Of a stretch of 64,000 bases of DNA, positions 9,001-12,000 are shown in pieces; position 1 is the first letter of the stretch; each line of letters starts with the position of its first letter. Source of the DNA: a virus; IMG/VR virus record IMGVR_UViG_3300043446_003177, positions 32,001 through 96,000 of that record; one strand, written 5' to 3'. The position numbers are program-made.

Positions 9001-12000
9001 AACTAGAGTATGAAAAAAATAATTTGTAAGGTTAAACAAATATGAAAGAACATTACATATTTACTAGTGAGTCTGTAAGTGACGGTCATCCAGATAAAGT
9101 AGCAGATCAAATTTCTGATGCTTTGCTGGATTCTGCTTTGCAAAATGGAGATGAAACTACTAGAGTTGCTATTGAAACATTGGTAACTACTAATCATGTT
9201 ACCGTTGCAGGTGAAGTCAAAAACTTTAATGTTTCTGAACCTGAGATCGAAAATATTATCAGAACCAAAGTAAAAGAGATTGGATATGAGCAATCTGGAT
9301 TTGATTGGAAAGATTTAAAAATCAATAATCTTATTCATAGTCAAAGTGCTGATATTGCTTTAGGCACTGATGACTTTGGTGCTGGCGATCAGGGCATCAT
9401 GTTTGGTTATGCTTGCAATGATAATGAAGCATTTATGCCTGCTCCAATTTACTATGCACACAATATCTTAAAAGAACTGAAAAAGATCCGAGAAGGAAGT
9501 ATTCTTGGACCAGACGCTAAATCACAAGTTAGTGTTCAGTATGATGGTGGAGTTCCTAAAAGAATTGATCAGGTTGTGATTTCTTCACAACATGAAGATG
9601 GGAAAATTGATGAGGCTAGAAATCTTCTTAAGGAAACTGCTTTATCTGTTCTTGGAGATCTTGTTGACGAAAATACAGTTTGGCATTTAAATCCAACTGG
9701 AAATTTTGTAATTGGAGGACCAGATGGTGATGTTGGATTGACTGGAAGAAAAATTATTGTTGACACCTATGGTGGTTATGCTCCTCATGGTGGTGGCGCT
9801 TTCAGTGGAAAAGATCCTACTAAAGTTGATCGAAGTGCTGCTTATGTTGCAAGATGGTTAGCAAAAAATGTTGTTGCAGATGATATGGCGGATTGGTGCC
9901 AGATTCAACTATCATATGCTATTGGTGTAAAAGAACCAACTAGCATCTATGTAGACTCTAATGGACATAACAGAAGTATTCAAAAGTTTATTAGAGATAA
10001 TATTGATTTAACCCCTAAAGGAATCATTGATAGATTTAATCTTTTTGGGTTCACTAAATATAGTGAAAATTGTGTTTATGGACACTTTGGTGATAAAAAT
10101 GTACCTTGGGAGAAAATTGGATGGTAAACTATGAAATCGCTGATATTGGATTGGCGGAACTTGGAAAACAAAGGATTGAATGGGCAGGTAGAGAAATGCC
10201 TGTTCTTAAGCAAATTCAAGAACGATTTGCAGAGGAAAAACCACTTGAAGGTATTCGTCTAGTTTCTTGTAATCATGTTACAACGGAAACTGCACATCTT
10301 TGCATTGCACTCAAGAATGCTGGCGCGGATTCTATGTTGATTGCTAGCAACCCTCTTTCTACACAGGATGATGTTGCTGCTGCTCTTGTAAAGTATTGGG
10401 ATATTCCTGTGTTCGCTGTTAAAGGTGAAGACAACGAAACATATGTTAGACATATTAATACCGCTCTTGATCATCGTCCTAATGTTATTATTGATGATGG
10501 ATCTGATGTAGTTGCAACTCTAATTAAAGAACGTCCTGAACAGATCTCTGATCTGATTGGAACAACGGAAGAAACTACGACTGGTATTGTCCGTCTCCGT
10601 GCTATGATTAATGATGGCGTTCTAAAGCACCCTGCTATCAATGTAAACGATTCTCAGACTAAGCATTTCTTTGATAATCGTTATGGAACTGGACAATCAA
10701 CTCTGGACGGTATTATTCGTGCAACTAATATTCTTCTTGCAGGTAAAACTGTAGTTGTTGCTGGATTTGGTTGGTGTGGTAAGGGTGTTGCTCTTCGTGC
10801 TAAAGGAATGGGAGCAAATGTGGTCGTCACTGAGATTGATCCCGTAAAGGCAATTGAAGCATCCTTAGAAGGATATAGAGTTCTTCCTATGCCTCATGCT
10901 GTAAGTGTTGGAGATATTTTTATCACTGTAACTGGTAATAAGAATGTAATCACCTACGATCATATGAAGTGGATGAAGAGTGGTTCTATTGTTTGTAACT
11001 CTGGGCACTTTGATAATGAGATTGATGTAAAATCTCTAGAAGAAAAGGCATCTGAAATTAAAGAGGTTCGTCCTTTCGTTAAGCAATACAAACTTGAACA
11101 TAATGAAGTTGTGGTGATTGCTGATGGTCGTCTTGTAAATCTTGGTGCTGCTGAGGGTCATCCTTCTGCCGTGATGGACATGAGTTTCGCAAATCAAGCA
11201 CTTGCCGTTGAGTATCTTGTTCAAAATCAAGGTAAACTTTCTCCTGGTGTTTATCCTGTTCCTGCCGAAAAGGATAAAGAAATTGCAGAGCTGAAACTTT
11301 CTGCAATGGGGATTAGGATTGATAAACTTACCGAAGAGCAAGTTAAATACATCAACTCTTGGTCTGAAGGAACATGAAGATTAATCTTTGGTACTGTAAT
11401 GATATGAATCAGTGGCGTTGGACTTTAACTGACGATCATAGGCCCATTATTAAACAGGAGTCTGGCCAAAGAGAAAATCTACGAGATGCTATGAATGATG
11501 TGGCAAATACTGTAGAATATATGTTGCAAGGTGAATAGGGCATTATCATTTAATGAAGTCTGACTATTATATTGAACGTGTGAATAAATCAGAATCCGCA
11601 GAGTTACTTCTGCGGTTTCATTATCTTAAAGACTTTTCTAAAGGATTTAAGAGTGGATATAACTATGGTTTATATAAAAGTAATGACTTTTGTCCATTAA
11701 ATATTGGTGGTATTCAGGGAGTTTGTCTTTTTACTGGTCTACCAGTTCCAGAAATTGCAGTAGGAGCATTTGGCTTAAATCGTGATGAACAGCAAGGAAT
11801 ATTTGAACTTTCGAGACTCTGCATCCACCCAGACACACAATCTGTGGAGCATAATATCACTTCTTGGTTTGTTTCAAGAGCGATTAGACAGTTACGGAAG
11901 GATACTGAAGTTAAAGCAATCATCTCTTACGCTGATAGTGATTTCCATAATGGTACAATCTATCGCGCTTGTAATTTTAAATATTGCGGACTCACAGACC

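Follow-up and report, generated by a model that had tools for sequence, protein, structure and literature searches.

A pair of methyl-cycle genes, metK and ahcY, overlaps in the genome of an uncultured T4-like cyanomyovirus, within a stretch of 64,000 nucleotides (nt) that we refer to as the window (bases 32001-96000 of the 172-kb IMG/VR virus record IMGVR_UViG_3300043446_003177, here G000, estimated to be 81% complete). The first gene, metK (9042-10127), encodes a short viral form of S-adenosylmethionine (SAM) synthetase of 361 residues and the second, ahcY (10121-11377), an S-adenosylhomocysteine (SAH) hydrolase of 418 residues; both lie on the plus strand. MetK converts methionine and ATP into SAM, and AhcY splits SAH, which inhibits methyltransferases, into adenosine and homocysteine. 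On balance we favour the reading that the two genes form an early-expressed SAM-cycle module that would keep the SAM/SAH ratio up for the SAM-dependent enzymes of the phage. The pair was not inherited as a unit: metK joined ahcY at a later point and stems from a different viral lineage.

Both proteins are complete with respect to the families they belong to. In MetK the three S-AdoMet synthetase domains (PF00438, PF02772 and PF02773) are each matched over their full length, and the family model TIGR01034 gives 434.4 bits against a curated equivalog cut-off of 309.4. Aligned with Escherichia coli MetK, whose structures (PDB 1RG9 and 7LL3; E 2e-102) are the closest solved ones, the viral protein keeps GHPDK, GAGDQG, DAKSQ, GRKIIVDTYGG and GGGAFSGKDPTKVDRS, the last motif having been tested, and found in this alignment, in the form GGGAFSGKDxxKVDRS. 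It is about 23 residues shorter than the E. coli enzyme, lacking 5 residues just past the gating loop and 3 residues ahead of DAKSQ and ending in a short C-terminus. AhcY is matched by the substrate-binding (PF05221) and NAD-binding (PF00670) domains and reaches 643.7 bits with TIGR00936 (cut-off 497.6). It aligns end to end with the Synechocystis-type SAH hydrolase of PDB 7O5L, again the closest solved structure (E 1e-204). The motifs for catalysis and NAD binding are kept and about 6 N-terminal residues are missing; six motifs are identical, and GHFDNEID is among those with one conservative change, at a non-catalytic position. An earlier note on this DNA had described metK and ahcY at these positions as intact and tightly coupled, which agrees with the family scores, the motifs and the 7-base overlap of the metK stop with the ahcY start (ATGGTAA). 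The ahcY gene that it proposed stands as well, with a corrected start: not the TTG at 10106 but the ATG at 10121, which has a candidate ribosome-binding site (GGGAGA) 8 nt upstream and whose equivalent is used in a sister contig, L006. Judged from their sequences, the two are true auxiliary metabolic genes of the phage that look functional, with predicted enzyme activity.

The pair resides in phage DNA. Its GC content at third codon positions (GC3) is 0.185 for metK and 0.239 for ahcY, with 0.16-0.18 in the structural genes, and in codon preference metK correlates with the gene pool of the phage at 0.91 and ahcY at 0.84. Phage genes flank the pair on both sides, and a start/stop overlap (ATGA, 11374-11377) ties the end of ahcY to the next gene, of family phrog_2818. 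The earlier note had itself named an assembly chimera with bacterial DNA as a danger. Such a chimera, or bacterial contamination inside the viral contig, could find some comfort in the isolate-phage collection, where we found no credible ahcY among 50,697 phage records and where the only three matches are to multi-contig assemblies of bacterial appearance or to a gut contig without annotation. It is nevertheless extremely improbable, given the phage-like codon use of both genes in a real T4-like cyanomyovirus contig. The overlap of both insert ends with phage genes speaks against it too, as does the recurrence of the same ahcY in about 35 other cyanomyovirus contigs, whose flanking phage genes are 80-96% identical to those of this genome, and so does the closest cellular AhcY, which is merely 74-75% identical. 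We therefore rejected this explanation on codon use, overlapping junctions and recurrence.

The genes stand in a tightly packed run on the plus strand. Four tRNA genes come first, for Gly (UCC, 8020-8091), Leu (UAA, 8300-8384), Thr (UGU, 8702-8773) and Leu (UAG, 8777-8858), followed by a 55-codon phage open reading frame (ORF; phrog_38106, 8862-9029) that forms the left border of the insertion site, then metK and ahcY, and then a 54-codon conserved cyanophage gene (phrog_2818, 11374-11538) that forms its right border and is also found after a tRNA-Leu in Synechococcus phage S-SSM4. The pair had been described as lying directly after the tRNA cluster, which is nearly so; the 55-codon ORF intervenes. 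The last gene of the probable unit encodes a Mom-like DNA modification protein (PF25680, phrog_1384, 11553-12176), and a terminator-like hairpin of 12 pairs followed by a T run closes it (12192-12218). The Mom-like gene is kept in L006. The Mom protein of phage Mu is not a known user of SAM, so that the link of this gene with metK-ahcY may be one of position only.

Two sigma-70-like promoters precede this run on the same strand. One (TTGACG-17-TATAAT with an extended TG, 7751-7779) lies upstream of tRNA-Gly and the other (TTGACC-18-TATAAT, 8243-8272) 28 nt ahead of the first tRNA-Leu. Both score 11/12 and both are conserved at the syntenic place in L006; five such sites were observed in the window with 0.26 expected. 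From its sequence and position, the site at 8243-8272 is the probable early promoter of the tRNA-metK-ahcY unit. Since the two genes overlap and belong to a packed run behind two conserved promoters of sigma-70 type, their products are probably made jointly and at an early stage. A different picture is given by ATAAATA, the late core of T4 type. The genome has it 42 times on its coding strand and 7 times on the opposite one, mostly 24-48 nt ahead of large structural genes, a pattern that fits a T4-type late promoter core. Within the window it is rarer than expected (8 versus 21, with sites at 12229, 23067, 30996 and 59778 among them), and it is absent from the 18.7 kb preceding metK, its next occurrence being at 12229. 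No SAM or SAH riboswitch was found within 6800-12400, which argues that metK-ahcY is under no RNA feedback of that kind.

The ahcY gene taken alone has a wide viral distribution. Our IMG/VR scan gave 39 ahcY loci, about 35 of which encode an AhcY 74-94% identical to that of the window, and the protein database holds roughly 75 AhcY clusters at 80-97% identity to it. The next matches, at 74-75%, are to named cyanobacteria (Leptolyngbya, Thermoleptolyngbya, Mastigocoleus and Microcoleus). A quick maximum-likelihood tree unites the viral sequences in one clade (Shimodaira-Hasegawa-like approximate likelihood ratio test, SH-aLRT, 100) that groups with cyanobacterial AhcY (SH-aLRT 84), and on this phylogenetic evidence the viral ahcY appears to be of cyanobacterial derivation and to form a single viral clade. 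The gene is under strong purifying selection: the ratio of nonsynonymous to synonymous substitution rates (dN/dS) is 0.06-0.12 against 24 viral relatives, with no broken copy. PHROGs contains no ahcY family. The ahcY gene is a recurrent and selected gene of an uncultured cyanomyovirus group, with no credible copy in a cultured phage of the isolate collection.

The related ahcY loci are flanked by cyanomyovirus genes and take up three genomic positions: in the replication module between the gp41 helicase gene and mazG, in an island of host-like genes between a porin gene and pstS, and behind the tRNA cluster as in the window. These positions are intermixed across the tree, and the gene therefore moves between sites. 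All three positions adjoin rare strong sigma-70-like promoters (at 159268 of G000, ahead of mazG; at 40896 of the window, ahead of a ferredoxin gene; and at 7751 and 8243), which suggests that gene cassettes enter at early-promoter junctions.

The origin of metK is a different one. Its product falls into a large and distinct clade of short viral MetK proteins, which are found mostly on marine jumbo myophages; MetK of 358-364 residues at 67-82% identity is represented by over 100 protein clusters and 160 loci of viral or metagenome origin. The flanks of the related metK loci have essentially no genes in common with this phage. One representative, L066, has a DNA methylase gene about 2 kb upstream of metK, and its family B polymerase shares 46-50% identity with the polymerases of jumbo myophages, GAP32 and Atu_ph07 among them; genome sizes of about 360 kb follow from completeness estimates. 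A FastTree phylogeny places the window MetK and two short environmental sequences (P0122 and P0123, 92% and 84% identical) in a small subclade, which sits beside the main marine clade. A scan of Joint Genome Institute (JGI) metagenomes for closer relatives returned none above 82% identity. Among species genomes the only matches were four contigs of Thaumarchaeota metagenome-assembled genomes (L123-L126), which carry a bacterial-type MetK at 68% identity. Archaea normally use another SAM synthetase family, so that these contigs may be viral ones binned with archaea. The closest metK relatives all lie on viral or unassigned contigs.

How the two genes came together can be read from three arrangements of the same site. 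In L036 the 55-codon ORF directly abuts the phrog_2818 gene, which represents the empty site. L006 has the gene order of the window without metK, and there the start of ahcY overlaps the end of the 55-codon ORF. In the window, metK is slotted between the two. The two genes were thus not acquired as a unit: ahcY alone is the recurrent cyanophage gene, and metK came to it from the other lineage. A shared ancestral metK-ahcY cassette was likewise rejected: no partner gene lies within 6 kb at 38 ahcY loci and 80 IMG/VR metK loci, apart from the distant contig L042. The five largest ahcY-bearing records (one of them estimated complete) have no metK anywhere, and the five largest metK-bearing records no ahcY anywhere. 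The combination is rare, as the earlier note had supposed, with one distant neighbour pair in 119 viral loci.

Two other viral lineages have nevertheless brought the same enzymes together. On L183, a 251-kb marine contig, a metK of the jumbo clade is followed 1 nt past its stop by a different ahcY (43% identical to that of the window), and the contig is probably from a jumbo phage with its own SAM-cycle pair. The surrounding segment (L183:2642-8617) holds a weak DNA-methylase-like ORF, metK, this ahcY, and then a KDO-8-P synthase gene and two cytidylyltransferase genes. On L042, a 74-kb viral contig, a distant ahcY, a 170-residue AAA_28 P-loop protein and a compact metK of 337 residues lie in a row (5992-8897); the P-loop protein could be a kinase recycling the adenosine freed by AhcY. 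The adjacency of metK and ahcY arose independently in L183 and in L042, and such convergence speaks for a functional tie between the two.

They bear directly on the view that the genes serve separate ends, MetK feeding the SAM decarboxylase SpeD for polyamines used in DNA packaging and AhcY working in adenosine and homocysteine salvage or in the relief of SAH, with adjacency an accident of a hyperplastic site. A speD gene is indeed present in the same genome, ahcY and metK are of different origin and each is usually found alone, and the insertion sites coincide with variable, promoter-bearing junctions. Chance adjacency, however, does not predict that two further lineages would juxtapose both genes, and in the window metK sits at just the point where its stop overlaps with the start of ahcY. 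We regard separate ends as rather unlikely.

In the SAM-cycle module that we favour, phage MetK and AhcY would maintain a high SAM/SAH ratio as gene expression in the host breaks down, and so would keep three SAM users running: an N6/N4 DNA methyltransferase, an FkbM-family methyltransferase and SpeD. The DNA methylase gene close to metK in L066 is in keeping with this. The two methyltransferases named in the earlier note proved real by their profile matches, both on the plus strand: the FkbM-family gene lies at 41849-42478 (PF05050, 67.5 bits) and the N6_N4 gene at 44705-45679, the latter being the only DNA methyltransferase found in the 172-kb record. As a rough estimate, about 100 progeny genomes modified at a four-base site would take up about 10^5 methyl groups, an amount comparable to the SAM content of a 1-fL cell. 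Protective methylation, the purpose first suggested, is a possible sink; it is just one of several, since speD and a SAM lyase domain are also encoded. Circumstantially, the host's own ahcY belongs to a set of 39 host genes with increased levels in high light during infection of Synechococcus by S-PM2 (PMC5931967). The timing of expression, the flux through the pair and the SAM consumer that matters are what we infer here.

Several points weigh against a module of this kind. Only two methyltransferases were found in the 81%-complete record, and searches of the genome gave no C5 DNA methylase, radical SAM enzyme, methylthioadenosine (MTA)/SAH nucleosidase or further class-I methyltransferase; with one DNA methyltransferase and the FkbM enzyme, the genome has few methyltransferases. 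No methionine synthase was seen, its families not having been searched for, and with the nucleosidase missing as well the phage depends on its host to close the cycle. The AhcY reaction favours the synthesis of SAH unless its products are removed. Since about 35 relatives have ahcY alone, and the five largest of them have no metK anywhere, metK is dispensable in this phage group. Late read-through into the unit from far upstream promoters is possible. Finally, a SAM lyase domain encoded in the same genome works against a simple purpose of raising SAM.

This domain (PF23780, S-AdoMet_lyase; 59.4 bits, cut-off 28) covers residues 238-361, the C-terminal part, of a very basic protein of 375 residues encoded outside the window at G000 145582-146709 (L128:583-1707). 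The pair had earlier been contrasted with phages that destroy SAM, a contrast that fails in a genome that itself encodes a T3-type lyase domain. No sigma-70-like site precedes the lyase gene; an ATAAATA core lies 28 nt ahead of its ATG, and this late-promoter-like core differs from the T3-like pattern of expression immediately after infection. The domain is sporadic, being present in one of three large ahcY records and absent from S-SSM4 and DSL-LC03. In a metK-bearing jumbo-phage record, G006, a single protein with two tandem S-AdoMet_lyase domains is encoded at 116470-117354.

One could imagine from this that the phage first depletes SAM and then rebuilds it. A T3-type lyase, made late and perhaps carried in the virion, would destroy host SAM at the start of infection and so disarm SAM-dependent defences such as Type I restriction and bacteriophage exclusion (BREX), after which early MetK and AhcY would rebuild the cycle to serve methylation by the phage itself. 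The lyase domain itself and its late core, set against the sigma-70-like promoters before metK-ahcY, are in keeping with this, as is the tandem lyase of G006, a record unrelated to this phage. The SAMase of T3 acts twice, cleaving SAM and also inhibiting host MetK (10.1101/2023.02.27.530186), and a foreign, short MetK may escape inhibition of that type. Binding of the present lyase to any MetK is, however, purely hypothetical, a persisting lyase would set up a futile cycle, and the co-occurrence is weak (lyase in two of six large metK records and in one of five without metK). We hold depletion followed by rebuilding to be unlikely on present evidence. Its fullest version, a two-phase SAM economy in which a virion-delivered late lyase would remove host SAM while early metK, from the jumbo-phage lineage, and ahcY, of cyanobacterial derivation, rebuild a private cycle for phage DNA methylation around a lyase-insensitive MetK, is doubtful to us; such a model is the more interesting one but weakly supported.

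Viral copies of the same enzyme families have been given another role. In the IMG/VR catalogue of Kieft et al. (2021), ahcY and metK belong to a group of 11 viral gene families with an inferred contribution to sulfide production (10.1101/2021.01.05.425418), and viral metK, ahcY, dcm and mtnN were proposed to push methionine towards homocysteine and cysteine breakdown. For the window such steering of organic sulfur is very unlikely: no downstream sulfur genes lie near the pair, and it gives no reason for the translational coupling or for the position of ahcY in the replication module of relatives. The same study lists ahcY on freshwater and marine IMG/VR contigs and finds viral metK conserved and under purifying selection (10.1101/2021.01.05.425418). 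It gives ahcY one sentence and table rows, with no cyanophage clade, genomic contexts or metK-ahcY pairing; the co-occurrences it reports are metK with dcm and luxS with mtnN, and the function considered is sulfur flow, not methyl potential. In the literature we found no paper on cyanophage ahcY or on a phage metK-ahcY pair.

The SAM-cycle module that we propose has counterparts elsewhere. In bacterial metK-ahcY(-metF) operons the same enzymes are adjacent and co-transcribed for the SAM cycle. Such operons usually have SAH or SAM riboswitches or are controlled by SahR, whereas the phage pair is without a riboswitch and comes from two unrelated sources, and no gene that remethylates homocysteine was seen with it. 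Phage-borne SAM synthetases also occur in prophages of Streptococcus and other Firmicutes and in Microcystis phage Mel-JY01 (phrog_1569), but these are 40-51% identical, belong to other viral groups and none is accompanied by ahcY. The SAM lyase gp0.3 of T3 (MetK complex, PDB 7OCK and 8BB1) is likewise a means by which a phage acts on the SAM pool of its host. Its effect on SAM is the opposite of that of metK-ahcY and it is made early, whereas here the lyase gene lies outside the locus behind a late-promoter-like core.

The wider neighbourhood of the pair is that of a cyanophage: conserved phage ORFs and a gene for a baseplate hub lie upstream, and huge proteins of the virion are encoded downstream. 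The isolates nearest in the tRNA region are Synechococcus phages including Bellamy, S-SM2, S-SSM4 and DSL-LC03. A glycine-rich protein (PF21722) is encoded upstream at window 6918-7754 by a gene of 51% GC in a genome of 37% GC; its GC3 is only 0.20, and the high GC is therefore due to Gly and Ala codons and not to a foreign origin. Upstream of the FkbM gene, window 39266-41238 encodes a short (270 residues) homologue of UDP-glucose/GDP-mannose dehydrogenases, a pyrimidine dimer glycosylase and a 2Fe-2S ferredoxin.

The auxiliary genes of cyanophages are known mostly for photosynthesis and for carbon, phosphate and nucleotide metabolism, and the locus described here adds the methyl cycle to this repertoire. 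Since this genome also encodes a SAM lyase domain, one may ask how a single phage can both destroy and make SAM, which bears on SAM-dependent defences, Type I restriction and BREX among them. That three viral lineages have independently paired SAM synthesis with SAH removal suggests that the supply of methyl donor, and product inhibition by SAH, can limit the replication of phages.

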